DNA from: Rhodothermales bacterium | Lineage (GTDB): Bacteria; Bacteroidota; Rhodothermia; Rhodothermales; Bin80 | NCBI GenBank assembly: GCA_958296045.1 | Contig: CATQHT010000003.1 | Coordinates: 2,666,814 to 2,730,813, forward strand | DNA: 64,000 bases | Direction: 5' to 3' | In this document: one piece after another, positions 1,396 to 64,000 of the stretch | How positions within the stretch are numbered: position 1 is the first letter of the stretch | Layout of the letters: every line of letters begins with the position of its first letter | Notes under the pieces: generated by a model | Seen by the model: the letters and a program-made list of their open reading frames with translations, nothing else | What the model was told of the DNA's origin: nothing | The model's database searches: none | Program-made: the position numbers and the translations under genes

Positions 1396-1403
1396 GCGGA
1401 ATG

Positions 1404-4336: not shown

Positions 4337-4456
4337 GGAAACGACAAGCGCGTCGGGTTTGTGCCCACGTCACGCAGCGTGACCAAAAGGGCAGCGGCCC
4401 AGGCGCAGAATGAGCGGGAATTCGCGGTGCCTTGCAAGGCCGCGTTGAGGCGACTC

Positions 4457-10879: not shown

Positions 10880-11001
10880 ACGTGCGCTGTGGTCTTACAG
10901 ATCCATGTAGGATTTTGGGTGGCACATCCCTCCGCGTTGGTGTACGTCTATGGCCTCTAATTGTGCGATAGCACACATTTATGACCAAGCGGAGGCTTGG
11001 T

Positions 11002-11126
11002 ATCGCGGGTCTGTGCAGGGCCATGGCCTGCCTTGGGCCTGTAATCGTGCGCGGGCGCACGTTTATAATCTATACGGCGCCGTTTTCGAACGTTTCCGCA
11101 CGATTCGAACGTTTCCGCACGATTAC
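11002..11126. repeat. repeat module copy 2
   Basis: Same module as 10737-10879 with a few substitutions. It lacks the two extra 10-bp TTTCCGCACG units. Confidence 0.8.
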
Positions 11127-35962: not shown

Positions 35963-37546
35963 TTAGCGTGTGCGCATGGCCGTGCGCACTGCCTGATAGC
36001 GCCCGCCGCCAGCCGTTGCTATCACGAGGTAGTGGCCGCTGGGCAGGCGCGTAGCGTCCAGGTGCACTAGGTGACGTCCGCTGGGCAGGAAGCCTGAAAA
36101 AAGGACGGCGGCGGTGCGGCCTGCCACATCGTGCACTTTGATGGTCACGGACTGCGCCACCGGGTTGCTGAGCTCCAGTGTGGTGCGTTGGTTGAAGGGG
36201 TTGGGATAGGCGGCCCCCAGTGCAAAAGTGGCAAGCTGGGCAGGGGCTTTTGGGCTGGGGTCTTTTGCGGTGGTGCCGACCGGGTCGTATTTGAGCAGGT
36301 ACAGTCCGTGAAATGCGCTGGTAACCGCTACGGTGCCGCTTGCAAAGTAGGGGTAAGCCGTCCAGGCTCCGAAGTATCCGGCATGGTCGCTAAATGGATA
36401 CGTATCAAAGTAGGCGATCTCTACGGGTGCGGTCGGTGAGGAGATGTCCGCCATACGTAGGCCACTGGCGTAGTTGGCCATATACAGCGTATCTCCTTTA
36501 ATGTAGAGGTTGTGATCTGTGGCATCGGTCGGGCCGAAGTATTCTGCGGCGAGCACCGGGTCATCCAGGTCGGTCATATCCCAGATGAGTGTTCGAGTGC
36601 CGGGCAGGGGTGTCTCGCCCAGCCAGTGGCGCATGAGCTCATCGGTCTCATCGTTAAGGTAGAGGAAGGTATGGTCTTCACTCAGCCACGCCTGGTGGGC
36701 ATACGATGCGTCTGGATATTCCGCGCTGCTCAGTTTGCGCGGCTGTGATTTGTCGGAGACATCCGCGACGCTAATGCCGTCCACGTTGGCCAGGATACAA
36801 ATCTCCGAGCCGTCGTGGTCGGTGTCGGGTCCGTGGTACACCACGCACTGCACGTCATGGGTGTATCCAGAGGTGTTGTCGCCGAGGCTGGTATCGCGGT
36901 AGCATCCTGCGTAGGCGGGTTGCAAAGGATCAGTGATGTCCACCATATGCAGTGCTAAGGGGCAGGGGCCATTGTCTGATCCTACCACGTAGGCAAATCC
37001 GGTGGCGGTGTTAATAGCCACGTTATGGGCCTGGTCGAACAGATCGTAGTGAGCAGTTGCGACAAAGGTCTGAGGCGTGCTCGCGGGCGATCGCAGTTGC
37101 GTCAGATCAAAGACTTGCATGCCGTTGGTCCCATCCACATCCTGGACGACGAATACATGATCCTGGAACACTTTCAGGTCGCGCCATCCAGACGTGGAAT
37201 TGTCCTGCGAGGGTAGTTTGCCCAGGTATTCTGGGTTGATCGGGTCGGTGATATCCACGAAGGCCACCGCATTGACTGTGCCTACGAGCGCGTATTCATG
37301 GCCGTTGACTGAATCGGTCCATCCCCACATGTCTAGCACTTCGGGGGCTTCCAGCCGGTCCGGCATCAGCCTTGACAGGAGTGCCACATTGTGGCAGGCA
37401 TGCCCGGCTGCTTCGCCGCTGGTGCAGTTGACGCGGTTGCCCGTGATGGAGGGTTGTGCAGACGCTGGCATGCTCAGCAGCGCCCCAGCGAGCAATGTTG
37501 CGATAGGAGAGCGCACTTCGTTGAAGATGTTGAGCAAGGCAGCCAC
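35963..37546 (-). CDS. choice-of-anchor B / LVIVD-repeat beta-propeller protein with T9SS C-terminal domain
   Basis: Signal peptide. DMWGWTDSVNGHEYALVG, QVFDLTQLRSP and GLRMADISSPTAPVEIAYFDT. The C-terminus YPNPFNQRTTLELSNPVAQSVTIKVHDVAGR...GHYLVIATAGG is the sorting domain. It is a paralog of 49214-50764 and of the C-terminal half of 59678-61966. Confidence 0.8.
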   Translation of the reverse strand: MAALLNIFNEVRSPIATLLAGALLSMPASAQPSITGNRVNCTSGEAAGHACHNVALLSRLMPDRLEAPEVLDMWGWTDSVNGHEYALVGTVNAVAFVDITDPINPEYLGKLPSQDNSTSGWRDLKVFQDHVFVVQDVDGTNGMQVFDLTQLRSPASTPQTFVATAHYDLFDQAHNVAINTATGFAYVVGSDNGPCPLALHMVDITDPLQPAYAGCYRDTSLGDNTSGYTHDVQCVVYHGPDTDHDGSEICILANVDGISVADVSDKSQPRKLSSAEYPDASYAHQAWLSEDHTFLYLNDETDELMRHWLGETPLPGTRTLIWDMTDLDDPVLAAEYFGPTDATDHNLYIKGDTLYMANYASGLRMADISSPTAPVEIAYFDTYPFSDHAGYFGAWTAYPYFASGTVAVTSAFHGLYLLKYDPVGTTAKDPSPKAPAQLATFALGAAYPNPFNQRTTLELSNPVAQSVTIKVHDVAGRTAAVLFSGFLPSGRHLVHLDATRLPSGHYLVIATAGGGRYQAVRTAMRTR

Positions 37547-39011: not shown

Positions 39012-39527
39012 CTACAGGCGCGTGGCCTGCTCCAGATAAAAATAAATCCCTGCTATTACGCCGATGGCGGAGATGACCGAGAATCCGATACCGATCAGCC
39101 ATTTGGTCAAGCGAAACTGCCTATCGGTCATCTGCATTAATGTGGTAAGCTGGTTTTGTTGGGCATCGAACTTGGTAGTCATCTCCGCTTTCTGAGCATC
39201 GAACTTGGTAGTCATCTCCGCTTGCTGGGCATCCAACTTGGCAGTTACCTCCGCTTTATGGGCGTCGAACTTGGTAGTTATTTCTGTCCTAAGCGCAGCT
39301 ATCTGGGCATCGAACTTGGTAGTCATTTCTGTCCTAAGCGCAGCTATCTGGGCATTTAGGGCCTCTAATTTCGTTTCGAAGCGGTGAATGAGCTTGGCGG
39401 AAGCCATCTTTTCCAAGAGCTTGATCAGTAGGTGAGCGTCTCGTCCGCTGCTGCCGGAACGTCGGAGAAGGTCGAAAAGTAGCGCGCCGTCAGGATCCTG
39501 GTGTCCGCTGTGTTGGTCGTCGGGCAA
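39012..39527 (-). CDS. tail-anchored coiled-coil protein (DUF1640-like), array copy 1, 171 aa
   Basis: ALLFDLLRRSGSSGRDAHLLIKLLEK, then two 15-residue and three 11-residue repeats (Q[KQ]AE[MV]T[TA]K[FL]DA), then the C-terminal TM LIGIGFSVISAIGVIAGIYFYL. This copy has a TTG start. Confidence 0.7.
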   Translation of the reverse strand: MPDDQHSGHQDPDGALLFDLLRRSGSSGRDAHLLIKLLEKMASAKLIHRFETKLEALNAQIAALRTEMTTKFDAQIAALRTEITTKFDAHKAEVTAKLDAQQAEMTTKFDAQKAEMTTKFDAQQNQLTTLMQMTDRQFRLTKWLIGIGFSVISAIGVIAGIYFYLEQATRL

Positions 39528-39731
39528 GCATGCTCTCTACCGTCAGCAGCAACGGTGGTTCCGCAGCGTGGACAAGCCAATGTGGTGAATCCAACGGTGC
39601 TGCGTATATCCACGCAAAACGGCCAGTGGGTCCGACGGAATTCTGCCACCTGATCCGAGATATATCTACCCCTGGCTGCATCCTGGTCAGGGTGCGTATG
39701 ATGATCTGCCAGAAGGGCGAAATGGGGCAGG

Positions 39732-40115
39732 TTATATCGGGTCACTGCTGGCTATCGCGGGAATGGCGGGCCCTTCTGTGGTGCGCTGCCAAAGTACGGC
39801 TTCATTGGGACGCGTCACACACTGTGATAGCCGAACAGGGCAAGGCATCGGTGTTGTTCTGCCGTTGGAAGGGGGGCTTGCGGGCGAATCTGACACATCA
39901 TAATGCGGCTCCAGAAGGAAAAACATCGCCAGCGAAGCCAAAGACGCCAGGAGGCCCCCGGCCACAGTCACCGCAAGCCCCCACAAGAAGTCTCCCCCGT
40001 CAGGTAACACCAGAAGCGGCAGCATGGCAGCTGCCACCGAGGCGAGCGCGGCCTTGCTTAGTCCGGCGACACCATAGGTCTGCGTCCTCACCATGCCAAG
40101 GTGTCCAACGATCAC
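39732..40115 (-). CDS. possible small 2-TM membrane protein whose first ~15 codons derive from tnpB (array copy 1, stop lost)
   Basis: MVRTQTYGVAGLSKAA (compare tnpB MVKTRTYRVTGLSKAK), then LASVAAAMLPLLVL and LWGLAVTVAGGLLASLASLAMFFLL. Coding status is uncertain. Confidence 0.25.
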   Translation of the reverse strand: MIVGHLGMVRTQTYGVAGLSKAALASVAAAMLPLLVLPDGGDFLWGLAVTVAGGLLASLASLAMFFLLEPHYDVSDSPASPPSNGRTTPMPCPVRLSQCVTRPNEAVLWQRTTEGPAIPAIASSDPI

Positions 40116-40280
40116 ATCCGCACCTGAGTACCATGATCCTGTCAGCTGGCAAACTATAATTCCCAGGTAACGACCAATAGCTGGGGGCTATCTCACGCTT
40201 ATCTTGGAGTAGCCTTCTTGACAAGCCAAGCCGCAGCCAATCTCCTCGTCTGGATGAGTTAGGCGCGCTGCAGACCTAGC

Positions 40281-40763
40281 CTACAGGCGCGTGGCTTGCT
40301 CCAGGTAAAAGTAAATTCCTGCTATCACGCCGATGGCGGAGATGACCGAGAATCCGATACCGATCAGCCATTTGGTCAAGCGAAACTGCCTATCGGTCAT
40401 CTGCATTAATGTGGTAAGCTGGTTTTGTTGGGCATCGAACTTGGCAGTCATCTCCGCTTTCTGGGCATCCAACTTGGCAGTTACCTCCGCTTTCTGGGCA
40501 TCGAACTTGGTAGTTATTTCTGTCCTAAGCGCGGCTTTCTGGGCATCGAACTTGGTAGTTATCTCTGCCCTAAGCGCAGCTATCTGGGCATTTAGGGCCT
40601 CTAATTTCGTTTCGAAGCGGTGAATGAGCTTGGCGGAAGCCATCTTTTCCAAGAGCTTGATCAGTAGGTGAGCGTCTCGTCCGCTGCTGCCGGAACGTCG
40701 GAGAAGGTCGAAAAGTAGCGCGCCGTCAGGATCCTGGTGCTCGCTGTGTTGGACGTCGGACAT
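40281..40763 (-). CDS. tail-anchored coiled-coil protein (DUF1640-like), array copy 2, 160 aa
   Basis: Same architecture as copy 1 with two 11-residue repeats. ATG start. Confidence 0.75.
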   Translation of the reverse strand: MSDVQHSEHQDPDGALLFDLLRRSGSSGRDAHLLIKLLEKMASAKLIHRFETKLEALNAQIAALRAEITTKFDAQKAALRTEITTKFDAQKAEVTAKLDAQKAEMTAKFDAQQNQLTTLMQMTDRQFRLTKWLIGIGFSVISAIGVIAGIYFYLEQATRL

Positions 40764-41093
40764 GCATGCTCTCTACCGTCAGCAGCAACGGTGGCTCCGC
40801 AGCGTGGACATACCAATGTGGTGAATCCAAAGGTGCTGCGTATATCCACGCAAAACGACCAGTGGGTCCGACGGAATTCTGCCACCTGGTCCGAGATATA
40901 TCTACCCCTGGCTGCATCCTGGTCAGGGTGCGTATGATGACCTGCTAGAAGGGCGATATGGGGCAGGTTATATCGGGTCACTGCTGGCTATCGCGGGAAT
41001 GGCGAGCCCTTCTGTGGTGCGCTGCTAAAGTACGGCTTCATTGGGACGCGTCACACACTGTGATAGCCGAACATGGCAAGGCATCGGTGTTGT

Positions 41094-41351
41094 TCAGCCG
41101 TTGGAAGGGGGGCTTGCGGGCGAATCTGACACATCATAATGCGGCTCCAGAAGGAAAAACATCGCCAGCGAAGCCAAAGCCGCCAGGAGGCCCCCGGCCA
41201 CAGTCACCGCAAGCCCCCACAAGAAGTCTCCCCCGTCAGGTAACACCAGAAGCGGCAGCATGGCAGCTGCCACCGAGGCGAGCGCGGCCTTGCTTAGTCC
41301 GGCGACACCATAGGTCTGGGTCCTCACCATGCCAAGGTGTCCAACGATCAC
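41094..41351 (-). CDS. possible small 2-TM membrane protein (array copy 2, 85 aa)
   Basis: Same as 39732-40115 but ends ...SPPSNG*. The unit-3 counterpart (42255-42570) needs a frameshift. Confidence 0.3.
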   Translation of the reverse strand: MIVGHLGMVRTQTYGVAGLSKAALASVAAAMLPLLVLPDGGDFLWGLAVTVAGGLLAALASLAMFFLLEPHYDVSDSPASPPSNG

Positions 41352-41516
41352 ATCCGCACCTGAGTACCATGATCCTGTCAGCTGGCAAACTATAATTCCC
41401 AGGTAACGACCAATAGCTGGGGGCTATCTCACGCTTATCTTGGAGTAGCCTTCTTGACAAGCCAAGCCGCAGCCAATCTCCTCGTCTGGATGAGTTAGGC
41501 GCGCTGCAGACCTAGC

Positions 41517-41966
41517 CTACAGGCGCGTGGCTTGCTCCAGGTAAAAGTAAATCCCTGCTATCACGCCGATGGCGGAGATGACCGAGAATCCGATACCGAT
41601 CAGCCATTTGATTAAGCGAAACTGCCTATCGGTCATCTGCATTAATGTGGTAAGCTGGTTTTGTTGGGCATCGAACTTGGCAGTTACCTCCGCTTTATGG
41701 GCATCGAACTTGGTAGTTATTTCTGTCCTTAGCGCAGCTATCTGGGCATCGAACTTAGTAGTCATCTCTGTCCTTAGCGCAGCTATCTGGGCATTTAGGG
41801 CCTCTAATTTCGTTTCGAAGCGGTGAATGAGCTTGGCGGAAGCCATCTTTTCCAAGAGCTTGATCAATAGGTGAGCATCTCGTCCGCTGCTGCCAGACCG
41901 CCGGAGAAGGTCGAAAAGTAGCGCGCCGTCAGGATCCTGGTGCTCGCTGTGTTGGTCGCCGGACAT
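41517..41966 (-). CDS. tail-anchored coiled-coil protein (DUF1640-like), array copy 3, 149 aa
   Basis: Same architecture with one 11-residue repeat. The N- and C-terminal parts are nearly identical to copies 1 and 2, although the flanking DNA is much more diverged. Confidence 0.75.
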   Translation of the reverse strand: MSGDQHSEHQDPDGALLFDLLRRSGSSGRDAHLLIKLLEKMASAKLIHRFETKLEALNAQIAALRTEMTTKFDAQIAALRTEITTKFDAHKAEVTAKFDAQQNQLTTLMQMTDRQFRLIKWLIGIGFSVISAIGVIAGIYFYLEQATRL

Positions 41967-49213: not shown

Positions 49214-50764
49214 CTACCGCACCAGCGCCACCGGCAGTGTGTGTGCATGTGCCCCTGAGCTGGCCCGGATGAAGTAGGTCCCGCTCACTAGGTTGCCAGC
49301 GTCAAAGGCCAGCCGGTGTCGTCCCTTTGTCAATTCGCCCGTGTGCAAGACCGCGATCTCCCGCCCAGCGGTATCAAAGACGCGCACATCCATCGTCCGC
49401 TCCTTCAGGAGGGATAGAGACACGTTAAGGACCGGATTGAATGGGTTGGGGTATGCGTCATGCAGCATGAATGAGCCGGGCGGGGCCTCCAGCAACGCAG
49501 CCGGCATCCCAAGAGTCTTTGTACTAAGCATGAATAGGCCCTCAGGTGAGCTGCTGACCAGCACTGTGCCGCTGGGCAGGAATGGATAGGCTGTCCAGGC
49601 GCCCCAGAACCTGAGGTCATCGTTTTCTGGGTGTGTGTCGAAGTAGGCGACCTCTTGCGGAGTCGCAGGGTCGGCCACGTCAAGGATGCGCAGCCCAGAC
49701 GTATAGTTGGCCATGTATACGTATTGGCCAGCGACGTACAAGTTGTGGTCGATCGATCGGGCTTGTCCCCAGTACTCGGTAAGGATCACCGGATCATCTA
49801 GGTCTTCCACGTCCCAGATAAGCGTCCGTGTACCTTCGCCGCGGCCGCCATCACGCAGCAGGTTGCGCTCATCGAGCTCATCGTTCTGCACCACGTACCG
49901 GTGGTCGGGCGTCAGCCATCCCTGGTGGGCATAAGACACATCTGGATAATCTGAGCGCGCGATGGCGACCGGCGCCGCCTTGTCGGTGACGTCAGCGATG
50001 CTGATGGCGTTTTCGTTGAAGCCGATGCAGATTTCGCGTCCAGCATGGTCTGTATCCGGTCCGTCATAGATCACGCACTGTGCATCATGCGTGTATCCGC
50101 TGCTGCCGCGGCCAGTAGAGTAGTCTCTGTAGCAGCCGGCATACTTGGGCTTGAGCGGGTCCCTGATGTCGATCATATGGAGCCCCAGGGAGCAGTCGTT
50201 ATAGTTGCCGTACCGGCTACCCACGGCATAGGCAAAGCCGGTGGCCTCATTGATCACAATGTTATGGGCTCGCCCTATACGGTCGTAGTGCGCGTCCGCA
50301 TCGAATTCGTAGGGCCTTGTTGGGGGCGACAGCAGCCGGCTGAGGTCAAAGATCTGCATGCCATTGCGCCCGGCGCCGTCCACGACCACGAACATGTGGT
50401 CCTTATAGACCTTCATGTCGCGCCAGACGGAAGTCGATTGCCAGTCCTGTGAAGGAAGCAGACCGATATACTCAGGATTGAGCGGGTCGGTGACCTCCAC
50501 GAAGGCTACATGCTCAAAGGTGCCGACTAGCGCAAACTCCCGCCCTGAGGACGGGTCTGCCCAGCCCCAAACGTCATTAAGGTAGTTAGCATCGCCGAGC
50601 TCTGCGGGAATGATCCTAGAAAGCAGCGTGACCTCGTTGCAGCTAAAGCCGCGCACGTGGCCATTGATGCATTCGAGCTCGGTGCCGGTGATGGACTGCA
50701 GCTGTTGCCCTGCCGCGGGCGTGAGCGCGGTAAGGCCCATAAGCAGTGCAAAAGGCAGTTTCAT
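49214..50764 (-). CDS. choice-of-anchor B / LVIVD-repeat beta-propeller protein with T9SS C-terminal domain
   Basis: Paralog of 35963-37546: DVWGWADPSSGREFALVG, QIFDLSRLLSP and GLRILDVADPATPQEVAYFDT. C-terminus YPNPFNPVLNVSLSLLKERTMDVRVFDTAGR...GTYFIRASSG. Confidence 0.8.
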   Translation of the reverse strand: MKLPFALLMGLTALTPAAGQQLQSITGTELECINGHVRGFSCNEVTLLSRIIPAELGDANYLNDVWGWADPSSGREFALVGTFEHVAFVEVTDPLNPEYIGLLPSQDWQSTSVWRDMKVYKDHMFVVVDGAGRNGMQIFDLSRLLSPPTRPYEFDADAHYDRIGRAHNIVINEATGFAYAVGSRYGNYNDCSLGLHMIDIRDPLKPKYAGCYRDYSTGRGSSGYTHDAQCVIYDGPDTDHAGREICIGFNENAISIADVTDKAAPVAIARSDYPDVSYAHQGWLTPDHRYVVQNDELDERNLLRDGGRGEGTRTLIWDVEDLDDPVILTEYWGQARSIDHNLYVAGQYVYMANYTSGLRILDVADPATPQEVAYFDTHPENDDLRFWGAWTAYPFLPSGTVLVSSSPEGLFMLSTKTLGMPAALLEAPPGSFMLHDAYPNPFNPVLNVSLSLLKERTMDVRVFDTAGREIAVLHTGELTKGRHRLAFDAGNLVSGTYFIRASSGAHAHTLPVALVR

Positions 50765-53758: not shown

Positions 53759-54577
53759 ATGGAGTGGTGGGTAGCTAGCCTCCTGGGCCTAGTACAAGGA
53801 CTGACGGAGTTTCTTCCCGTGTCGTCGTCAGGGCATCTGGTCTTGGCACAGGCCGCGCTCGGCGTTCAAGCCGACGAAGGGCTCCTCTTTGAGGTATTGG
53901 TCCACCTGGGCACGGCACTGAGCATCGTGACGGTCTACGGACGGCAGCTGGGAGCCATCGCCTGGGACATGCTGCGCGCCGTGCGGCGCCCGGTAACGAC
54001 CTGGCGTCAAAGCCAGGATGCCCGCACTGGAGGCTTTATCTTGCTGACGCTTCTACCGACTGGTATTGTGTACCTCCTTTTTGCCAAGCCTCTAGAAGCT
54101 ACCTTCGATTATCCAGCCCTCGCCAGCGCCATGCTGCTGGTCACCGGTGTGCTGCTCCTGCTAACCGTCAAGGTGCACCCCTATAGGCATGGGAAGCTGA
54201 CCTGGGCCAAAGCCCTGGTGGTCGGGCTGGCCCAGGGAGCGGCCCTTTTGCCTGGCATCTCACGTTCGGGCGCCACCATCTGCGCGGCGCTATACCAGAA
54301 AGTGACACCGCAGACAGCAGCCGACTTTGCGTTTCTTATGGCAGTACCTGTCATCTTTGGCGCCGCCTTGATCAAAGGATGGCCGCTGCTGGAGTCGCCA
54401 CAGGACGTGAACCTGGCGCCCCTTGTCATCGGCACACTCGCCGCCTACCTCAGCGGTATGGCGGCGATAAAAGTGGTGCTGGGCTTTGTGCAGCGCGGCA
54501 GACTCCACTATTTTGCCTATTACTGCTTCGGGATCGGCACCTTGGGGCTGATCCTGATCTATATGCCATGGCTATGA
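53759..54577 (+). CDS. uppP: undecaprenyl-diphosphate phosphatase
   Basis: TEFLPVSSSGHL and LLPGISRSGATI signatures. 8 TM helices. 272 aa. Confidence 0.95.
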   Translation: MEWWVASLLGLVQGLTEFLPVSSSGHLVLAQAALGVQADEGLLFEVLVHLGTALSIVTVYGRQLGAIAWDMLRAVRRPVTTWRQSQDARTGGFILLTLLPTGIVYLLFAKPLEATFDYPALASAMLLVTGVLLLLTVKVHPYRHGKLTWAKALVVGLAQGAALLPGISRSGATICAALYQKVTPQTAADFAFLMAVPVIFGAALIKGWPLLESPQDVNLAPLVIGTLAAYLSGMAAIKVVLGFVQRGRLHYFAYYCFGIGTLGLILIYMPWL

Positions 54578-55389
54578 ACCTCACGCCGTACGAACGCCGA
54601 GCGCGCCGCGAAATCGATGACTGGGTGCGAGGCGATGCCTCCATCCTGGCACGGGCGTTTAACCTGGTGATGAAGCCGGTGGACTGGGCCGTGGAGCAGG
54701 CCGTGCCAGCAGCCGTGGCGCAGCAGGCAGGCGATGCCGTGGGTCAGTTTCTATCGATGCTCAACGATGCGTCCAAATGGACATGCGACACGTCCGCGCT
54801 TGCCACCGCCGCCCAGGCACAAGGCATGGACGTGGAAGATGTGGAGGCCCTCAGAAGCCAGCCGCTTGAGCGCCTAGATGGCTTGGCCCGAGGCTTTTTT
54901 TCGCAGAACGCGCTTTTAGCGGCGCTCAGCGGCGGAGGCACCGGTCTGGGTGGGTTTGCACTCATCGCTGCGGATATCCCCATACTTTTTACGATCAACT
55001 TCCGGCTGATTCAGCAGATCGGCGCGGCATTCGGGTTTCCCATGAAGAGCCCCGAATACGGACCCGTCGTGCTGTCCATATATAATGCCGCGGCCGCTGG
55101 CACGCGCGACGCGCGCGGCGCGGCCTTGAGTGAAGTCACGGTGGCCGCTGCGGCGCTGGCTGGCAGGTCCGGCTACAAAGGGCGTGTGCGCGGCACCATT
55201 GGCGACCAGAGCAGACACCTGCCGCGGGAGATAACAAAAAACCTGGTGGGCCGAAAGCTGCTGCAAGCTATCCCGCTTGCCGGTGCGGCCGTCGGAGCGG
55301 GCATCAACTACTGGTTTACCAGCGAAACCGCCAAAACCGCGTTCATGCTGTTTCGGGCGCTCCACCTGGAATTCAAAGAACGCCGGTAG
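54568..55389 (+). CDS. EcsC-family protein
   Basis: MAMNLTPYERRARREIDDWV... and LSGGGTGLGGFALIAADIPILFTINFRLIQQIGAAFGF are typical of EcsC. The start overlaps the uppP stop by 10 nt; the ORF-track start at 54379 lies inside uppP. Confidence 0.75.
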   Translation: MAMNLTPYERRARREIDDWVRGDASILARAFNLVMKPVDWAVEQAVPAAVAQQAGDAVGQFLSMLNDASKWTCDTSALATAAQAQGMDVEDVEALRSQPLERLDGLARGFFSQNALLAALSGGGTGLGGFALIAADIPILFTINFRLIQQIGAAFGFPMKSPEYGPVVLSIYNAAAAGTRDARGAALSEVTVAAAALAGRSGYKGRVRGTIGDQSRHLPREITKNLVGRKLLQAIPLAGAAVGAGINYWFTSETAKTAFMLFRALHLEFKERR

Positions 55390-55392
55390 TTT

Positions 55393-56730
55393 ATGCCTTT
55401 GGTAGCCATCGTTGGGCGCCCCAATGTGGGTAAGTCGACCCTGTTTAATCGGCTGACGCAGGCGCGGCAGGCTATCGTGGCTGACGAGCCGGGAGTGACG
55501 CGCGACCGGGTCTATGGTACGGTCGAATGGAACGGCAGAACCTTCTCGTTGGTGGATACGGGCGGCTTTGTGCCACGCTCGGCCGAGAGGTTTGAGAAAG
55601 CTATTCGCGAACAGGTGCACATCGCCATTGAGGAAGCCGATGTGGTGGTGATGGTCGCCGACGTAATGTCGGGTGTCACGGACCTGGACGACGAGATGGC
55701 CCGGACGCTCAGACGCAGCGGCCAGCCGGTGCTGGTGGTCGGCAACAAGGCGGACAACATTGAGCGGCGCTATATGGCGGCGTCCCTCTACCGTCTGGGG
55801 CTAGGGGAGGTATTTCCGGTCAGCGGCACCAATGGCATGGGGACGGGCGACTTTCTGGACGCGCTGGTGGAGCAGCTGCCGGCCTCGTCGTCGACAACTC
55901 AGCCCCAGGGGCTGGACGGCATCGCCCTTTTGGGGCGCCCCAATGCGGGCAAATCACTTTTGGCCAATGCCCTGTTGGGGCGTGAGCGCTCTATCGTGAC
56001 CAGCGTCGGCGGTACCACGCGCGACGCCATCGACAGCCCCATCACATGGCGGGGCCACCACCTAACCCTGATAGATACCGCTGGCTTGCGCAAGCGTGCC
56101 CGTGTGGCGGACAACATTGAATTCTATTCGGTGCTGCGCACGCGGCGCGCCATGGAGCGCTGCGAAGTGGTCGTCATCGTGCTCGATGCCACCCGAGGGC
56201 TTCAGGCGCAGGACATCCGGATCCTGAAAGATGCGGAAGCAGCCAACAAGGGGCTGCTGATTGCGGTCAACAAATGGGACCTGATAGAAAAGGTTACGAA
56301 CACGGCGCGCGACTATGAAGCAAACCTGAGGGCGGGGCTAAAGACGCTGGACTATGTGCCGGTGCAGTTCATCTCGGCGCTGACGCGGCAGCGGGTTCAT
56401 CGCGTGCTGGAATATTCCGTTCGTATCCTGGCGGCCCGCGCCGAGCGTGTGCCGACCGCCAAGCTCAACACCGTGGTGCAGCAGGCTATCCGGCGAAACC
56501 ATCCGCCCAGCTACCGCAACCGCCATGTGCAGATCAAGTATGCCACGCAGGTCAGCACGCGACCCCCGGTCTTTGCATTTTTCTGCAACCACCCGTACGG
56601 CATCACGACCGCGTACCGACGCTTTCTCGAACGGCGGCTGCGCGAAGCCTTCGGGTTCGAAGGCGTGCCCATCTCCGTCGTATTCAAAGCCAAGTCGAAG
56701 CAGGACCTAGCGGAACAACCGGACGCGTGA
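55393..56730 (+). CDS. der: ribosome biogenesis GTPase Der (EngA)
   Basis: Two GTPase domains (GRPNVGKSTLFN/DTGG/NKAD and GRPNAGKSLLAN/DTAG/NKWD) plus a KH-like C-terminus. Confidence 0.95.
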   Translation: MPLVAIVGRPNVGKSTLFNRLTQARQAIVADEPGVTRDRVYGTVEWNGRTFSLVDTGGFVPRSAERFEKAIREQVHIAIEEADVVVMVADVMSGVTDLDDEMARTLRRSGQPVLVVGNKADNIERRYMAASLYRLGLGEVFPVSGTNGMGTGDFLDALVEQLPASSSTTQPQGLDGIALLGRPNAGKSLLANALLGRERSIVTSVGGTTRDAIDSPITWRGHHLTLIDTAGLRKRARVADNIEFYSVLRTRRAMERCEVVVIVLDATRGLQAQDIRILKDAEAANKGLLIAVNKWDLIEKVTNTARDYEANLRAGLKTLDYVPVQFISALTRQRVHRVLEYSVRILAARAERVPTAKLNTVVQQAIRRNHPPSYRNRHVQIKYATQVSTRPPVFAFFCNHPYGITTAYRRFLERRLREAFGFEGVPISVVFKAKSKQDLAEQPDA

Positions 56731-56766
56731 GGGCTTCGAATACCCATCGTCTATTCGACTTCTTAG

Positions 56767-57489
56767 ATGCCCGGCGTCCCAAAAAATACGAAGCCAGAAA
56801 ATGAGCGCACGCTCAACCTGGCCGAGCGGCTGTATCTGCCCGAAATTTTCAAGGGATTGGCTTACAGCTTCAAAAAGATGATCAGGGAGCCGCAGTACAC
56901 GGTGGAATATCCTGATGAGCTGTGGGATCCTCCCGACTCATATCGCGGACGCCCCGTCTTGGTGGAAGAGGACGGCAAGCCGCGCTGCGTCTCGTGCAAC
57001 CTGTGCGCCAAGGCGTGCCCGCCGATGGCCATATCGATGCAGTCGAAAGAGGTCGACGACCCGTCGAGTGCCAAAGAGCGAGAGCCCGCCTGGTTTGAAA
57101 TCAACATGCTCCGCTGCATCTACTGCGGCTTTTGTGAGGAGGTCTGCCCAGAAGAAGCCATAGTGATGTCCAAAGAGTATGACCTGACCTTCCAGGACCG
57201 GGATGAGGCCATCTTCGGCATGGATCGCCTCCTTATTCCCGCCGAGCGCCTGACTGAGCGGCTGCGCTATCTGCGGGAATACAAGGATCCGCAGGAAGAA
57301 GCCGAACCCTGGCAGCACCCCACTGAAAACAACCTGCACAGCCTCAAAGACCGACACCATCTGGAGGCGCTGGCCAAAAAGAAGATGCCAGCGTTGGCCA
57401 ACACGCACTTGCGTGCCGAGGCTCCGATCGCGCAGGCCAACACATGGAGCGGTCGCGCTACAGAACGCGCTGCAGAAGAGGATAAATGA
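56767..57489 (+). CDS. nuoI: NADH-quinone oxidoreductase subunit I-like 2x[4Fe-4S] protein with C-terminal extension
   Basis: [32 protein letters not shown], plus the cluster motifs [12 protein letters not shown] and [12 protein letters not shown]. About 80 extra C-terminal residues. No other nuo genes nearby. Confidence 0.75.
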
Positions 57490-57953
57490 GTCCGGCCGGG
57501 ATGCGCAGGGCGCTGCTTTTGCAGCTCGGTCATTTAGAGGAAGAGCTGGAGGCCACTAGGGTTGTTGGCCGACATCTGCTGCCTGCCATGCTTACCGCCA
57601 GAAGCGGGGACGCATCCGTCCAAGAGTGTTACGGCCAATTGGCGGAACGGGACCGCAAGATGTTGCCGCAGCTCAAGCACATGACAGCGTTGCCCCATCC
57701 AGCCGTCTCTTCCCCTATCGCGCCAGCCGAGGCGTCGTGGAACGAGATGACGTTCGGCGAGGTGCTGGACGCCGCGTGTGCGGCGCGGCGTACGCTGGTC
57801 GCCTTTGTGCGCACGCTGCCTTTGGCGGCATGGACCCGGACGGAGGTGGTCGATGGCAAAAAGAGCGACATGTTTGGACTCTTGCATCAGCTCACGCAAG
57901 CGGACGCAGAGCTGCTGCAGCGTGTGGCCCGGCAGCTGAACCAGATGCTGTAG
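57486..57953 (+). CDS. hypothetical protein (DinB-like helical bundle?)
   Basis: 155-aa ORF whose ATG overlaps the nuoI stop (ATGA), suggesting coupling. The family guess is weak. Confidence 0.4.
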
Positions 57954-57955
57954 CT

Positions 57956-59029
57956 GTGAAGGCTGCCCGCAAAGACAGCGTTCCTCAGCGGTTTGAGGAC
58001 CTAAAGAAGATCTTCAAGACGGGTGCATTAGAGCCACTGTACCTGTTGTATGGAGACGAGCCCTTCTTTTTGACCGAGCTGCAGCGTTTTGCGGAAAAGG
58101 TCGTCGTGGATGAAGCGCTAAAAGACTTCAACTGCGACATCTTTTATGGCGACGAGGTTGCTGCCGACGAAGCGATCTTGCGGTGTCTGGCACCACCCAT
58201 GATGGCAAAGCGGCGCCTAGTTATCGTCCGTCGCTTCCATAAGATGGCTGGCAATGACCGCTGGATAGCGTACGAAAAGCACCCGAACCCGCGCGCGGTA
58301 GTGCTGCTCATCTGTGAGCAGAGACCCGACATGCGGCGCAAGGTGTACAAAGCGCTCAAGGCCAGACGTGTAGCCCACGAGTTTGAGCCGCTGAAAAAAA
58401 ATCAGAGACTCTCGTTTATTCGCCAGCGTGTCAAAGCCGCGGGGCGGTCTATCGAAGCGGATGCCCTAGACTTGCTAGGGGAATACCTGGGAGCCTCCCT
58501 GAGTGTCGTCGCAACAGAGACTGATAAGCTGCTGACTTATGCCGGCCAACGGACGCAACTGACGGTTGACGATGTGGCCGTGGCGATCGGGCAGTCCATC
58601 GATGTCAAGCCCTGGGAGCTGCAGGAGGCGGTCTTAGATGGTGATCCGTTTCGGTCCGAGGCCCTTGCTTCGAAGCTTATCGAGAGCAGCCAGGATAAGC
58701 GAGGAACAGCCATTGGGACCGTCATTAGCCTGGGAAAATTTTTTTCTCAGGCGTGGAAAGCCTACAGTCTGGAGCACCGCCGCCGTATGCCGCGTTCTAA
58801 GGTGGCTGAGGCGCTGGATTCGCGCCCATTTGTGGCACGCAAGTACATCAGAGCGGCCCGCCACTTTGGGCCAGACGGTCTGCAGCAGGTCTTTAGCGCG
58901 CTCCTGGCCGCTGACTGTGAGCTGAAAGGCTTCAGAATGCGAGACCCCGAGCTGGTGATGACGCTCCTGTTGCGACGCGTGCATGAAGCGGCTGGGGCCG
59001 GATCCAGGCACGCTGCGCGCGCGCGCTGA
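57956..59029 (+). CDS. holA: DNA polymerase III subunit delta
   Basis: FEDLKKIFKTGALEPLYLLYGDEPFFLTELQRF is the typical delta N-terminus. About 357 aa from a GTG at 57956. The ORF-track start at 57626 overlaps the previous gene. Confidence 0.8.
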   Translation: MKAARKDSVPQRFEDLKKIFKTGALEPLYLLYGDEPFFLTELQRFAEKVVVDEALKDFNCDIFYGDEVAADEAILRCLAPPMMAKRRLVIVRRFHKMAGNDRWIAYEKHPNPRAVVLLICEQRPDMRRKVYKALKARRVAHEFEPLKKNQRLSFIRQRVKAAGRSIEADALDLLGEYLGASLSVVATETDKLLTYAGQRTQLTVDDVAVAIGQSIDVKPWELQEAVLDGDPFRSEALASKLIESSQDKRGTAIGTVISLGKFFSQAWKAYSLEHRRRMPRSKVAEALDSRPFVARKYIRAARHFGPDGLQQVFSALLAADCELKGFRMRDPELVMTLLLRRVHEAAGAGSRHAARAR

Positions 59030-59090
59030 CCGCAGCGAAACAAAAACGCCGCCCGTTCATTCCGCACCATATCCACCTGCACCCCTGCTT

Positions 59091-59576
59091 ATGGCACAAG
59101 GATACCACAGCACATCTCTTGCACCCAGCATGCTCGTTGATGAGCTGCTGTGCGAATTCGTCGATGGGACCATCGAAGAGTCCATCCGCGACGACTTTGA
59201 GGCCTGCATGCGTGCTAACAGGGATCTGGCGGTGCGCGTGGACCGGCTGCGTGCTACTCGGCAGCTGTTGAGGCAGTACCGGTGGCGTGACACCAATGGA
59301 ACGAACCAGCGCGTGCGTGCGCGCCTATTGCGTCAGCTCCAGGCGTCTGGCGCTCCCAAGGCTTCCGGTAGCATGTTCCGGGTGCTGGCGCTCGCGCTGT
59401 GCGCAATGCCGCTGGTCCAAACCGCGCCAATGGTGCCTGTCCCCGCACTTCATCAGGCGCTGGCGCTCCCGGCTGCGATGCCGTACTGGGCGCAGTCCTG
59501 TCCGAGCGGAGCGGGCGCCCTGCGCATCGCCGCGTCGCCTCATCTGATGACCGCGACGGCGGTTTCCTGCAAGTAA
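59091..59576 (+). CDS. hypothetical membrane protein, anti-sigma-factor-like N-terminus
   Basis: LLCEFVDGTIEESIRDDFEACMRANRDLAVRVDRLR resembles an anti-sigma N-terminal helix pair. One TM segment (MFRVLALALCAMPLV). Weak call. Confidence 0.35.
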   Translation: MAQGYHSTSLAPSMLVDELLCEFVDGTIEESIRDDFEACMRANRDLAVRVDRLRATRQLLRQYRWRDTNGTNQRVRARLLRQLQASGAPKASGSMFRVLALALCAMPLVQTAPMVPVPALHQALALPAAMPYWAQSCPSGAGALRIAASPHLMTATAVSCK

Positions 59577-59582
59577 TTCTTT

Positions 59583-59659
59583 GGGCCCTTAGCTCAGCGG
59601 TTTAGAGCGCTCGCCTCACACGCGAGAGGTCACAGGTTCGAATCCCGTAGGGCCCACCA
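59583..59659 (+). tRNA. tRNA-Val (anticodon CAC), CCA encoded
   Basis: Acceptor stem GGGCCCT/AGGGCCC. D arm AGCTCAGCGGTTTAGAGC. Anticodon stem-loop CTCGC-CTCACAC-GCGAG. T arm GGTTCGAATCC. 3' ACCA. Confidence 0.9.
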
Positions 59660-59677
59660 CACGCCAAGTACAAACCA

Positions 59678-61966
59678 ATGCGCTACCGATCCATCCTGCT
59701 GCTATCAGCGCTTGTCACACTGCCCTGGGGTGTCTGGGCGCAATCCTTCTATAGCTACGCTCCTATGCCAGCCTCCTTCGGAGGCGCCGTGGCCATAGGC
59801 GAAGCGCACCTTTTTGTGGCTGCGTCGAGCGGTTTCAAAGACCCGGGTACGGTGCATGTTTACGCACGGTCCATGGGCGGCTGGGAGCAGACTCATCAGC
59901 TGCAGGCGGCAGAGCCTGCCGTGTCGGACTTTTTCGGGCGCGCGCTGGCCCATCAGGGCAACACGTTGGTGGTGGCTGGCAATGCGGTCGTGGCCTTTTT
60001 TGCCTTTGACGGCAGCGCATGGACACGTGTGACGCAGCTGGAAATGCGCATAGCTAGCGTAGCCACAGATGGACGACTCGCTCTTTTGGGGGTCCCCGGC
60101 GCGGACGACACACCCGGCCAGGTGGTTGTCTACGAAGATGGTGACGGTGGGTGGACCGAGGTGGCACGCCTAGCAGGCGAGGCATCCGCGTTCGGGCGAT
60201 CCCTTGCGATCGATGGCCAGATGGCGCTCATAGGGGGCGAAGAGTCGGTTGCCTTCTACCGATGGGATGGTCAGACGCTTGTGCAGGAGGCCACCTTTGC
60301 GGGTTCGGAGCTTAGCATCGAGCAAAGCTTCGGCGCCGCTGTCAGCTTGAGCGGCAGCCATGCGCTCGTAGGGGCCCCCTCAGAAGAATCCGTGCAGGCG
60401 TTCCGCCACGAGGATGGAGCTTGGCAGCCGGCTGGCCGCCTCAGTCCCGGTGAGGATGTGCGCGGCGCGGGCTTTTTTGGCACCGCCGTGGTGGCCCAAG
60501 CCGATACCTGGTGGGTGGGAGCGCCGTTTGCGAATCAGGCCGCGGGAGCGATGTACCTCTTTGCGGCAGGCGACACGGTGGCAACAGGCGCGCTGGCACC
60601 TGAGGCCGCAGTCGGAAGCGGGTTCTTACGTTTTGGCTCTGCGGCAGCCGTCACGAACGGTCACGCACTGATCGGCATGCCAGGGGCGGCCTACGGAGAA
60701 GGCAGCGCGATGCTTTATGCGATCGAAGACGGTGCGTGGAGCTTCATGGAAGAGCTGTTCGTGGAGGCGGAACCCATGGATCCGGTGCTGGGCGAAGGCG
60801 AGGTCTGCGACCAGAATGACGCGGGCGGCTATGAGTGCGGGCAGGTGGATCTGGTGTCGTTCTTGCCCCTTTCGGATATGGGAACCGCCCGGGGCGTGCG
60901 CCTCAGCGACGTTTGGGGATGGACAGATCCAGAAACAGACCGCGAATACGGGCTGGTAGGACACCTGGAAGGCACCGCCTTTGTGGACCTGGGCGATCCG
61001 TCGAGGCCGCGCTTTCTAGGAGAGCTTCCGCGGACCGAAGGGTCGCCGGGCAGCACATGGCGCGACATCAAAGTCTTTGCGGATCACGCGTTCATCGTGG
61101 CCGACGGCGCCGGTGCGCACGGCATGCAAGTGTTTGACCTTACACGGCTGCGCACGCTGGATGACGCGCCAACAATCTTTGAGCCGGATGTGCTCTACGA
61201 TGGCATCCATAGCGCGCACAACATAGTGGTCAACGAAGAGACCGGGTTCGCGTTTGCGGTTGGCGCCAGCGGCGGTGGCCAGACGTGCGGCGGCGGGCTG
61301 CACATGATTGACGTCCAGAACCCGCAGGAGCCTGTCTTTGCTGGGTGCTTTGCGGACGAGTCGACCGGGCGGCGCAAGACGGGCTACTCGCATGATGCGC
61401 AATGTGTCATTTATCAGGGACCCGACAGCGAGCACCACGGCAAAGAAATATGCGTCGGATCCAATGAAACCGCGATTAGCATCGCGGACATCACCGATAA
61501 GGACAACCCGGTGGCGATCTCCAGCGGCACTTATCCAGATGCGGCGTATGTGCACCAAGGGTGGCTATCCGAGGACCACACCTTTTTCTACCAAAACGAT
61601 GAGCTGGACGAGCTCAGCGGGCGCGCAGAGCGCACGCGCACCCTGGTCTGGGATGTGAGCGACCTGGACGACCCGTTGCTAGTCCACGAGTATTTCGGGC
61701 CTACCAGTGCTACAGACCACAACCTGTATGTGCATGGCGACCTGATGTATCAGACCAACAACGCTAGCGGGCTCCGCATCCTGGACATCTCCGAACGCTC
61801 GGCCCCTATGGAGGTCGGCTTCTTTGACACGACGCCCTACGGAACCAATGATGCCGGCTTTAACGGCACCTGGAGCAGCTATCCGTACTTCAAGAGCGGC
61901 ATCATCATGGTGACGAGCCGACGCGAAGGGCTCTTTGTTTTGAAGAAGCAGACCGTGGGATCCTGA
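59678..61966 (+). CDS. secreted FG-GAP-like repeat + choice-of-anchor B/LVIVD fusion protein (no T9SS C-terminal domain)
   Basis: Signal peptide MRYRSILLLSALVTLPWGVWA. The N-terminal half has repeated FG..(A/L)..(G)....VGAP units (FGRSLAIDGQMALIG, FGAAVSLSGSHALVGAP, FGTAVVAQADTWWVGAP). The C-terminal half is paralogous to 35963-37546 (DVWGWTDPETDREYGLVG, GLRILDISERSAPMEVGFFDT). It ends without a sorting domain. Confidence 0.8.
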   Translation: MRYRSILLLSALVTLPWGVWAQSFYSYAPMPASFGGAVAIGEAHLFVAASSGFKDPGTVHVYARSMGGWEQTHQLQAAEPAVSDFFGRALAHQGNTLVVAGNAVVAFFAFDGSAWTRVTQLEMRIASVATDGRLALLGVPGADDTPGQVVVYEDGDGGWTEVARLAGEASAFGRSLAIDGQMALIGGEESVAFYRWDGQTLVQEATFAGSELSIEQSFGAAVSLSGSHALVGAPSEESVQAFRHEDGAWQPAGRLSPGEDVRGAGFFGTAVVAQADTWWVGAPFANQAAGAMYLFAAGDTVATGALAPEAAVGSGFLRFGSAAAVTNGHALIGMPGAAYGEGSAMLYAIEDGAWSFMEELFVEAEPMDPVLGEGEVCDQNDAGGYECGQVDLVSFLPLSDMGTARGVRLSDVWGWTDPETDREYGLVGHLEGTAFVDLGDPSRPRFLGELPRTEGSPGSTWRDIKVFADHAFIVADGAGAHGMQVFDLTRLRTLDDAPTIFEPDVLYDGIHSAHNIVVNEETGFAFAVGASGGGQTCGGGLHMIDVQNPQEPVFAGCFADESTGRRKTGYSHDAQCVIYQGPDSEHHGKEICVGSNETAISIADITDKDNPVAISSGTYPDAAYVHQGWLSEDHTFFYQNDELDELSGRAERTRTLVWDVSDLDDPLLVHEYFGPTSATDHNLYVHGDLMYQTNNASGLRILDISERSAPMEVGFFDTTPYGTNDAGFNGTWSSYPYFKSGIIMVTSRREGLFVLKKQTVGS

Positions 61967-62148
61967 GCGGATCCCCTTGGCAGGCGCAATGGCTCCATTA
62001 GCAACAATACAGGCACCGTTCTGACTCCAGTCGCATCTCGTCCTTTGTACCTGTGGCGTCGGTCTGGCATTGCACGTCCGCTCACAGGAGTGGGCAGACC
62101 GGTATGCTGCGTGCGTCCGATGGCTCGCCGCTTGATGAGTCTATGATG

Positions 62149-62427
62149 ATCGACGTCGAGTCTGCGCTAAGGACGCTGGAGCTTCGCGAAGCGTACATCG
62201 GCCGCTCTTGCTTCGCTGCAGGCCGCAAGTATCCGCTGATCCAGATCGACCACAGGTTTGACCGGACGCCCGAGCGTGTCAGACAAATCATTGAGCAAGC
62301 TGTGCGCAAGGTCCGCCCTATGGCGTATGCCCAGCGGTGGATGCGCCGGTCTATCCTGTTGGTCCAGGCGCAGCAGGGCCGTGCCGTGCAGCGTGCCTCC
62401 AGGATGCGTAAGCGCATCTGGCAGATC
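62149..62427 (+). pseudogene. scrambled sigma-70 gene debris (region 4 fragment joined to a region 2.4/3.0 fragment)
   Basis: Within ORF 62053-62481, IDVESALRTLELREAYIGRSCFAAGRKYPLIQIDHRFDRTPERVRQIIEQAVRKVR aligns to region 4 of the downstream sigma genes. It is followed directly by AYAQRWMRRSILLVQAQQGRAV, which aligns to [22 protein letters not shown]. Confidence 0.6.
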
Positions 62428-62492
62428 GCAGAGATGGCGTCAAACACGGTGTGCCATCGGTTGAAAACACCTCTTGTCTGACCTGTCGTCCT

Positions 62493-63341
62493 ATGCCCAG
62501 GTTTGTTCCACGTCGCCAGCGGATGCTGAATCAGTATCTGAAAGAGATAGGTAAAATCAAGCTGGTGACCCCTGCCGAGGAGGCAGAGCTGGCATACAGA
62601 ATTCGACAGGGTGATGACGACGCGCTCGAGAAGCTGGTCCAGGCCAACCTGCGCTTTGTGGTATCCGAAGCCAAACACTACCAGGGGCAGGGGCTGCACC
62701 TGACCGACCTGATCAACGAAGGCAACTACGGCCTAATCAAGGCGGCTACGCGTTTTGATGAGACGCGTGGCTTCAAATTTATCTCGTATGCGGTGTGGTG
62801 GATACGCCAGTCTATCCTTAAAGCGTTAGCGGAGCAGGGGCGTGTAGTGCGGCTTCCGCTTAACCGCATCGGGATCATCCTCAAGATGCGCAAGGCTAGT
62901 GCACGACTGGCGCAGGAGAAAGAGCGCCGGCCCAGCTGCGAGGAGCTGGCCGGTGAGCTGGATGTCGGGGTGGACAAGATACGGGACGCCATGCAGCATA
63001 CGGCACGGCACTTATCTATGGATGCGCCCTTTAGTGACGAAGGCGACAACAGCCTTCTGGATGTGCTGCCGAACAATGAGACCATTGCGCCCGATGCCCC
63101 GCTGCACGATGAGTCCATAGAGATCGCCATAGAGGTTGCACTGGGGATGCTCGAGCCCCGCGAAGCAGAAATCGTCCGCCTCAGCTTCGGCATCGGCCGC
63201 GAACATCCGCTAACTCTCGACGAAATCGGGCAACGGTTCGACCTGACGCGCGAGCGTGTCAGACAGATTCGGGAGAAGGCCTTTAGTAAGCTCCGCAAAC
63301 AGCGCACGATGCTTCGCCACAGCTCAGAATTGTATGGCTAG
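62493..63341 (+). CDS. RNA polymerase sigma-70 factor (short Bacteroidetes-type RpoD-like), copy 1
   Basis: Regions 1.2 to 4 are present: [71 protein letters not shown] and TLDEIGQRFDLTRERVRQIREKAFSKLR. Confidence 0.9.
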   Translation: MPRFVPRRQRMLNQYLKEIGKIKLVTPAEEAELAYRIRQGDDDALEKLVQANLRFVVSEAKHYQGQGLHLTDLINEGNYGLIKAATRFDETRGFKFISYAVWWIRQSILKALAEQGRVVRLPLNRIGIILKMRKASARLAQEKERRPSCEELAGELDVGVDKIRDAMQHTARHLSMDAPFSDEGDNSLLDVLPNNETIAPDAPLHDESIEIAIEVALGMLEPREAEIVRLSFGIGREHPLTLDEIGQRFDLTRERVRQIREKAFSKLRKQRTMLRHSSELYG

Positions 63342-63389
63342 GTTTCGGCTGAAGTCCACCAGTCCTCTCTCTACTCGCCCCGCCGTCTT

Positions 63390-64000
63390 ATGCCCATGTT
63401 CGTTCCGCGTCGCCAGCGGATGCTGGATCAGTACCTTAAAGAGATCGGCCAGATCGAGCTGGTAACCCCATCACAAGAAGCTGAACTGGCACGCAGAATC
63501 AAGCAAGGCGATGATGATGCGCTTGAGAAGCTGGTCCAGGCCAACCTGCGTTTTGTGGTTTCCGTGGCCAAGCGGTACCAAGGGCAAGGGCTGCATCTGA
63601 CTGACCTGATCAATGAAGGCAACTACGGTCTTATCAAGGCGGCCAAGCGCTTTGATGAGACGCGCGGCTTCAAGTTTATCTCGTATGCGGTGTGGTGGAT
63701 ACGGCAGTCCATCTTGCAGGCTCTGGCGGAGCAGGGGCGTGTGGTACGGCTCCCGCTTAATCGCATCGGCATTATCAGCAAGATCCGGAAGACCAGTGCA
63801 CGGCTCGCGCAACAGAAGGAGCGTATGCCCAACTACGAGGAGCTGGCCAACGAGCTGAATATCGGGGTGGACAAGATTCGCGAGGCCATGCAGCACACAG
63901 CACGGCACCTGTCGATGGATGCGCCCTTTAACGACGAAGACGACAACAGCCTTTTGGATGTACTGCCGAGCAATGAGACTATCGCACCCGATGTCCCGCT
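63390..64000 (+). CDS. RNA polymerase sigma-70 factor, tandem paralog copy 2 (3' end beyond the window)
   Basis: My own translation: [112 protein letters not shown]... It is open to the window end, so it is absent from the ORF track. Confidence 0.85.

Follow-up and report, generated by a model that had tools for sequence, protein, structure and literature searches.

The stretch of DNA analyzed here, 64,000 nucleotides (nt) in length and referred to below as the window, ends in a cluster of sigma-70 sequences on the forward strand: two intact genes arranged head to tail, sig1 (62493–63341) and sig2 (from 63390 to the end of the window and beyond), preceded by two sigma-like fragments (62113–62439). 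We think it likely, with a probability of roughly three in four, that a Rhodothermales-like bacterium has here amplified its native sigA/rpoD locus tandemly and in place, with sig2 as the primary sigma factor, sig1 as a group-2-like factor, and the fragments as pseudogene remnants. On this reading a conserved parent, a diverging yet constrained daughter and dead fragments lie side by side, and the ancestral single-copy state can be seen in relatives; the locus would then provide a natural case of which residues change first as a primary sigma factor turns into an alternative one.

Two sigma genes and the fragments upstream

The 282-residue product of sig1 matches the Pfam models for sigma regions 1.2, 2, 3 and 4 (PF00140, PF04542, PF04539 and PF04545, with 44.6, 63.5, 61.3 and 61.9 bits, respectively), in each case above the gathering cut-off. 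The part of sig2 that lies in the window (63390–64000) comprises its first 203 codons (63390–63998), in which regions 1.2, 2 and 3 were matched. Residues 1–203 of a database protein of 280 amino acids that contains all four Pfam regions (P0002) are identical to the translation of these codons, and sig2 is therefore not truncated. These findings bear out the proposal, made in an earlier note on this DNA, that two full RpoD-like genes lie head to tail here, and they answer the concern raised there that the second copy might prove truncated or frameshifted beyond the window. With regions 1.2, 2, 3 and 4 all present, the genes have the makeup of primary-like (group 1 or group 2) members of the sigma-70 family. 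The database counterpart of sig1 (P0001) is called from Met11, and both P0001 and P0002 come from one source contig of 2,880,851 bp. A third paralog (P0003; 278 amino acids, all four Pfam regions, 88% identical to sig2) is encoded on a contig of identical length, taken to be the same one.

The products of sig1 and sig2 align without gaps and share 87% of their residues, in line with the description of them in the note as mostly identical; at the nucleotide level the genes are 82.9% identical. The longest identical stretch between them spans 29 nt, and there is therefore no sign of recent gene conversion. An independent repeat finder reported the pair as a direct repeat with a period of 897 nt that starts at positions 62482 and 63379, that is, 11 nt 5′ of each ATG, so that the segment common to the 5′ sides of sig1 and sig2 (62482–62492 at sig1) forms the start of the repeat unit. 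Only ~11–13 nt of homology upstream of the starts could be demonstrated, short of the ~30 nt that had been claimed, and similarity further upstream was not significant. In an alignment of the start codons, the canonical start of sig2 is the ATG at 63396; the same codon is AGG in sig1, and an in-frame ATG two codons upstream of the canonical start is common to both genes.

The 48-nt spacer between the genes (63342–63389) contains no terminator-like or promoter-like site on the forward strand, and sig1 and sig2 are therefore probably co-transcribed. A scan for sigma-70 promoters and terminators returned two promoter-like sites, as compared with 0.9 ± 0.9 in shuffled sequence, and two terminator-like sites, as compared with 1.4 ± 1.2. 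The Bacteroidetes-type −7 motif TAnnTTTG was not enriched in the window and did not occur on the forward strand near the locus, and a search of positions 61000–64000 against Rfam gave no match.

Upstream of sig1, the two fragments, which we refer to as remnants A and B, lie on the forward strand beyond a non-coding gap (61967–62112) that follows the stop codon of the neighboring gene. Remnant A (62113–62316) corresponds to a decayed region 3.2 and region 4 (sigma residues 199–268) and was detected by tblastn (E = 8e-12 against the whole window), by blastn and as repeat D3; it is 51–57% identical in amino acid sequence to sig1, P0002, P0003 and orthologs, and 73% identical over 183 nt at the nucleotide level. 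It has lost two codons from the first helix of the helix-turn-helix (HTH) of region 4.2 and carries an R→P change at the first arginine of the TRERVRQ motif. Remnant B (62317–62439) corresponds to a decayed region 2.4 and region 3.0 (sigma residues ~96–140); by tblastn it aligns to residues ~79/96–140 (E = 1e-3 window-wide and 1e-6 locally), and it includes a 39-nt repeat, D2, that is 79% identical to sig1 and 72% identical to sig2. Internal deletions have shortened remnant B, and two codons connect it, in frame, to remnant A. Both remnants fall in the frame of one open reading frame (ORF) that extends, at its maximum, from a GTG at 62053 to 62481, and that the source annotation calls, as the 125-residue protein P0121, from 62104 to 62481 (residues 18–142 of the maximal ORF). 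Results from tblastn, blastn and the repeats thus agree that a region-4-like segment in this ORF is followed, in the same frame, by a region-2.4/3.0-like one, just as had been noticed from the sequence; the sigma-like DNA begins at 62113, however, and not at 62149, where the feature had been taken to start.

Comparison of remnant A with sig1 gave a ratio of nonsynonymous to synonymous substitution rates (dN/dS) of 0.41 and a proportion of synonymous differences (pS) of 0.48. For remnant B versus sig1 dN/dS was 0.42; pS for the remnants ranged from 0.48 to 0.59, similar to pS for sig1 versus sig2. Such dN/dS values are about what a comparison between one neutral and one constrained lineage should give. 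The sole Pfam match of the upstream ORF is to Sigma70_r4, at 21.9 bits and under the cut-off of 24.1; it matched no NCBIfam model, and among 5.8 billion proteins it had no homolog except its own gene call, P0121. The possibility that the ORF represents a distinct protein family thus found no support in these searches, and the stretch from 62113 to 62439 displays the out-of-order partial homology, relaxed constraint and lack of an independent family that characterize pseudogene remnants. On the basis of the relaxed dN/dS of ~0.4, the damage to the HTH and the lack of homologs, we conclude that remnants A and B are apparent pseudogene debris, about as old as the split between sig1 and sig2, and that P0121 is most likely a spurious gene call over pseudogene DNA. 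The order of the segments (residues 199–268, then ~96–140), the dN/dS of 0.41–0.42 and the presence of a single gene in relatives all favor the suggestion in the note that the upstream ORF holds what is left of further copies joined by deletion. The gap at 61967–62112 was not significantly similar to the corresponding intergenic regions of relatives, nor did it resemble the 5′ regions of sig1 and sig2 (shuffle p of 0.3–0.99). A candidate relic start codon, in which TTGTAC would match ATGTAC of the ortholog, was no better than shuffled sequence (p of 0.3–0.5) and is not claimed.

Origin of the array

For synteny we compared two relatives. An ortholog of 278 amino acids that is 90% identical to sig2 (P0005) is encoded in a 4.6-Mb ENA contig (locus L081) whose gene order is BacA-EcsC-Der-Fer4-DinB-holA-hyp-FG-GAP-sigma-OEP-MFP-ABC. 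All genes that lie left of the sigma gene in that locus have colinear counterparts in the window, at 53759–61963. The left neighbor of the array, and hence the syntenic anchor, is a gene for an FG-GAP/LVIVD repeat protein of 762 amino acids (59678–61966, forward strand; Pfam FG-GAP_2 and LVIVD), the product of which is 64% identical to that of its counterpart in L081, directly 5′ of the single sigma gene there. The second relative (locus L204, with ortholog P0009) has the same arrangement from DinB onward. In each of the two, one sigma gene lies between the FG-GAP gene and the efflux genes, and no sigma fragments were found between the FG-GAP and sigma genes. The ancestral arrangement was therefore an FG-GAP gene, one sigma gene and efflux genes, and the presence of the single gene at the same syntenic site in both relatives indicates that the amplification took place in situ and is lineage specific.

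Phylogenetic evidence points the same way. In a neighbor-joining tree with 20 orthologs, sig1, P0002 and P0003 form one clade with 99% bootstrap support. The value of pS is 0.50 for sig1 versus sig2 and 0.66–0.72 for either copy versus the L081 ortholog. Taken together, the monophyly of the paralogs and the lower pS between them indicate that the duplication occurred in place after the split from the two relatives and did not involve acquisition. It was not recent, because sig1 and sig2 are separated by ~0.8 synonymous substitutions per site (pS ~0.50); of the possibilities that the note had proposed to separate with a phylogeny, recent duplication and acquisition, duplication thus stands, whereas recency and acquisition do not.

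In the simplest history, the array would once have held four units or more, and the first two of them would later have been shortened. Across a tandem junction, region 4 of one unit would be followed by a spacer and then by regions 1.2–2.3 of the next unit; a deletion of ~370–390 nt over such a junction would bring region 4 directly before region 2.4, and a second deletion, of ~450 nt, would join what remained of the remnant-B unit to the leader of sig1. The result would be the 3′ part of one unit (residues 199–268) fused to the middle of the next (residues ~96–140).

Two further features of the relatives' loci can be recorded here. Between the FG-GAP and sigma genes, L204 has 695 nt without a called gene (4306–5000), where L081 has 135 nt; the longer stretch contains no sigma-like remnants and has no similarity to the remnant region of the window. 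In the related genome, several Transposase_mut (PF00872) genes lie in both orientations a few kilobases 3′ of the single sigma gene (L081 15517–20837 and L082 15709–17990), and mobile elements are therefore present near the sigma locus in relatives.

Divergence of sig1 and competing explanations

The two intact genes have diverged very unequally. With P0005 as the outgroup, 37 residues are unique to sig1 and 3 to sig2 (Tajima relative-rate test, P = 8e-8); in the corresponding comparison of P0003 with sig2 the numbers are 23 and 8. The sig2 product is 90% identical to the ortholog P0005, that of sig1 79%. Between sig1 and sig2 dN/dS is 0.089, within the range of 0.04–0.09 found for the intact genes overall, and on the branch leading to sig1 it is estimated at ~0.15 if dS is split evenly. 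The small number of unique changes in sig2 and its greater identity to the ortholog identify sig2 as the conserved primary sigma gene, and the dN/dS of 0.09 despite fast change marks sig1 as a probably functional, diverging paralog. Synteny and lowest divergence, by which group 1 SigA/RpoD orthology is recognized, were found for the locus and for sig2 but not for sig1 as a primary factor. The best PDB and NCBIfam matches of sig2 are SigA/RpoD. For all copies the best NCBIfam model is NF004208 (RpoD), with 252–278 bits against a cut-off of 555; since P0005 also falls below this cut-off, the models evidently misfit the short SigA type and cannot separate primary from secondary factors. From these comparisons, sig2 is the predicted primary sigma factor, with the ancestral sequence kept.

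Of the differences between sig1 and sig2 in the window, 8 lie in region 1.2 and at least 11 in region 3, whereas region 2 has few, which agrees with the clustering noticed earlier. Changes unique to sig1 were scored at columns that are invariant in 116 orthologs. By this measure about a dozen otherwise invariant positions, together with the whole C-terminal tail, set sig1 apart from the ortholog consensus: R35Y in region 1.2; V59E and K62H in region 2.1; Q110K in region 2.4, which is the sole difference within the region 2.4 helix; S130L in region 3.0; K210E and D212A in the linker; Y231S in region 4.1; and K260R, L264F and R265S in region 4.2. The tail RQKHRxxNLKxHI, conserved in the 116 orthologs, sig2 and P0003, is replaced in sig1 by KQRTMLRHSSELYG (63297–63341, forward strand, delimited by column-by-column comparison). 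By contrast, the motifs through which core polymerase and promoter DNA are known to be contacted, DLINEGNxGL, YAVWWIRQ and TRERVRQI, are all unchanged in sig1. The region 2.3/2.4 YAxWWIRQ and region 4.2 TRERVRQI motifs of promoter recognition and melting are identical in sig1, sig2 and the 116 orthologs; sig1 thus retains both the aromatic residues and the Gln residues of region 2.3/2.4, as well as RERVRQ in the recognition helix of region 4.2.

Positions in E. coli sigma-70 are given in a numbering that agrees with the ranges of the PDB alignments. We take V59E and K62H to correspond to E. coli I390 and K393, and Q110K to R441, presumably beside the −12-reading residues Q437 and T440. K260R, L264F and R265S would correspond, in the same numbering, to E591, L595 and R596, within residues 590–600, where lambda cI, class II activators and similar activators presumably make contact. 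The first sites to change here would accordingly be the region 2.4 position beside the −12 readers, region 3.0, the end of region 4.2 that contacts activators, and the C-terminal tail.

How sig1 came by its new tail is suggested by its boundary. Similarity of the sig1 DNA to the ortholog stops ~10 nt past codon 268, and because remnant A ends at codon 268, where sig1 leaves the conserved tail, the pattern suggests that a duplication breakpoint inside the gene may have given non-terminal units a new tail. An origin by frameshift was considered and rejected: neither alternative frame resembles the conserved tail by eye, and the DNA similarity itself ends at this point.

As a same-genome paralog of the primary sigma factor, with conserved DNA-binding regions and a sequence signature of its own, sig1 resembles the members of group 2, and its mode of action is most likely that of a group-2 or alternative-primary sigma factor. 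We would expect it to bind core RNA polymerase and to recognize essentially the same −10/−35-type elements as sig2. The idea put forward in the note, that the copies may differ in promoter or partner preference, can be framed more narrowly in these terms: the differences in sig1, some of them at otherwise invariant positions presumed to be of surface type, would shift promoter ranking and contacts with activators or anti-sigma factors, and would not create a new specificity.

Several points weigh against our reading of the locus. The role given to sig1 is a prediction from its sequence, and two features could be read as early decay: V59E, which replaces a hydrophobic residue that is otherwise invariant in region 2.1, and the loss of the canonical start. 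Within the paralog clade the branching order is weak, sig1 and P0003 pairing with 77% support, possibly through long-branch attraction; dS to the orthologs is saturated, which makes the timing rough; and P0003 may also belong to the array, which would then be larger. Finally, that the P0121 frame should be free of stops is mildly unexpected, with P of ~0.05–0.15 under simulated neutral decay. One alternative is that sig1 is a redundant copy drifting toward a pseudogene, with no distinct role, and that sig2 is the sole working gene. The strongly accelerated change in sig1, the radical exchanges at invariant sites (Y231S and R265S in addition to V59E), the new tail and the adjoining, fully decayed copies would all suit such a drift, but the 282-codon ORF has stayed intact over the ~0.8 synonymous substitutions per site, dN/dS for the pair and for the sig1 branch is far from the 0.41 of the true remnants, and all four domains exceed the Pfam cut-offs with the known DNA- and core-contact motifs kept. 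We therefore regard drift as unlikely.

The stop-free frame bears on another proposal, namely that P0121 is a real gene encoding a small region-4-derived decoy for activators or anti-sigma factors, or a leader coupled to sig1. Both fragments and their junction share that frame, the source annotation calls a gene there, the sig1 ATG follows the stop codon of the ORF by 11 nt, and two metagenome loci (L120 and L167, described below) likewise have a short sigma-derived ORF after a full sigA gene. Against this stand the dN/dS values that fit a neutral lineage compared with a constrained one, an HTH hit by both the two-codon deletion and the R→P change, the lack of homologs and of any Pfam or NCBIfam match above cut-off, and the frequency of spurious ORFs of 100–200 amino acids in this G+C-rich DNA, which occur on the opposite strand of the P0121 stretch as well; a genuine P0121 gene accordingly seems very unlikely to us. 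A wider scheme, in which three still-constrained SigA paralogs (sig1, sig2 and P0003) serve housekeeping transcription and share out promoters or activator partners, and in which P0121 is possibly expressed as a decoy or a coupled leader that tunes sig1, is in our estimation unlikely; if it were true, the primary sigma gene would here be giving rise to a new sigma regulatory module in Rhodothermota/Bacteroidota. Least probable of all, and by our estimate scarcely credible, is that the extra copies were acquired horizontally or that the tandem is an assembly artifact. The source is indeed a metagenome-type assembly, but the three paralogs are one another's closest relatives (99% bootstrap) and G+C content, overall and by codon position, fits that of the adjacent genes (the DNA has 59.6% G+C). 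Moreover, copies that differ at 17% of nucleotides and lack long identical tracts would be neither confused nor collapsed by an assembler, and the diverged remnants imply a real history. Amplification in place, with a conserved sig2, a diverging sig1 and dead remnants, is thus the reading that we favor.

Other features of the window and related sigma systems

A second tandem gene amplification lies within the window at 39012–41966 on the reverse strand, where three copies of a gene for a protein of 149–171 amino acids (39012–39527, 40281–40763 and 41517–41966) recur with a period of ~1269 nt. In each of these proteins a conserved N-terminal part is accompanied by 11-residue TTKFDAQxAEx repeats, which vary in number, and by a hydrophobic stretch at the C-terminal end that, judged by eye, could be a membrane helix. 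Two genes on the reverse strand, at 49508–50701 and 36272–37465, encode paralogs of the FG-GAP/LVIVD protein that correspond to its C-terminal half and are 50–53% identical to the L081 ortholog. The only tRNA gene in the window, for tRNA-Val(CAC), is at 59583–59659 on the forward strand, directly 5′ of the FG-GAP gene. Within 10816–11124, a 19-nt unit, TTCGAACGTTTCCGCACGA, is repeated in short tandem arrays at two places that are ~265 nt apart.

With regard to known systems, primary-like sigma paralogs that arose by duplication of rpoD are documented in actinobacteria, cyanobacteria and Burkholderia (PMC2194791, PMC2758279). The view that duplicated housekeeping sigma factors are uncommon, expressed in the note, consequently holds for tight tandem arrays but not in general, primary-like paralogs being well known (PMC2194791, PMC2758279). 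Group 2 or alternative primary factors, such as cyanobacterial SigB–E, Streptomyces HrdA/C/D, Burkholderia SigI/SigJ and extra rpoD copies, possess full regions 1.2–4.2 with near-identical DNA-recognition residues, derive from duplication and coexist with an essential primary sigma factor (PMC2194791, PMC2758279), a description that sig1 and P0003 fit. As in group 1 SigA/RpoD, sig2 shares a syntenic position and 90% identity with the single sigma factor of relatives. Unlike the group 2 systems, however, sig1 and sig2 have remained head to tail where the ancestral gene lay, with 48 nt between them and decayed units alongside, and the copies are of the short (~280 amino acids) Bacteroidota/Rhodothermota type of SigA. 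In the literature searched, no primary-like SigA paralogs were described in Bacteroidota or Rhodothermota.

Tandem pairs were sought more widely. A search of metagenomes for the junction pattern ERVRQI ... YLKEIG, with Glu encoded as GAG only, gave 0 matches. A looser pattern gave at least 120, a scale at which we estimate that chance matches are to be expected; about half of the loci had no sigma-like match and most of the others had a single sigma gene, and tandem pairs were picked out by tblastn. In two of the loci, a short ORF (L120, offsets 1105–1528, reverse strand, and L167, 3143–3719) of 141 and 192 amino acids, respectively, comes after a full-length sigA-like gene and has a region-2-like segment 53–59% identical to the neighbor and a C-terminal end that appears region-4-like by eye; these ORFs may be mini-sigma derivatives or decaying duplicates. 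On an 8138-nt ENA contig, a 375-residue Bacteroidota-type SigA (P0010) contains an internal tandem duplication of regions 2.2–3.0, of ~90 residues, which is either an intragenic event or an assembly error.

A scan of a genome collection with sig1 listed 80 loci, and relatives among the matches listed were at most 68% identical. One of the 80, from a member of the Muribaculaceae (L078), has a tandem sigA pair whose partners are 67% identical, and metagenome pairs have partners that are 85% (L086), 81–87% (L197/L177) and 72% (L093) identical. As at the locus studied here, each consists of two full-length primary-like sigma genes placed head to tail with a short spacer; decayed extra units were not looked for in these loci. 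The pairs are only 39–60% identical to sig1 and represent independent events in other lineages. Tandem duplication of sigA thus recurs in the short SigA type of Bacteroidota and Rhodothermota, and the locus described here is an ordinary example of the birth of a primary-like sigma factor by duplication, with no new mechanism.

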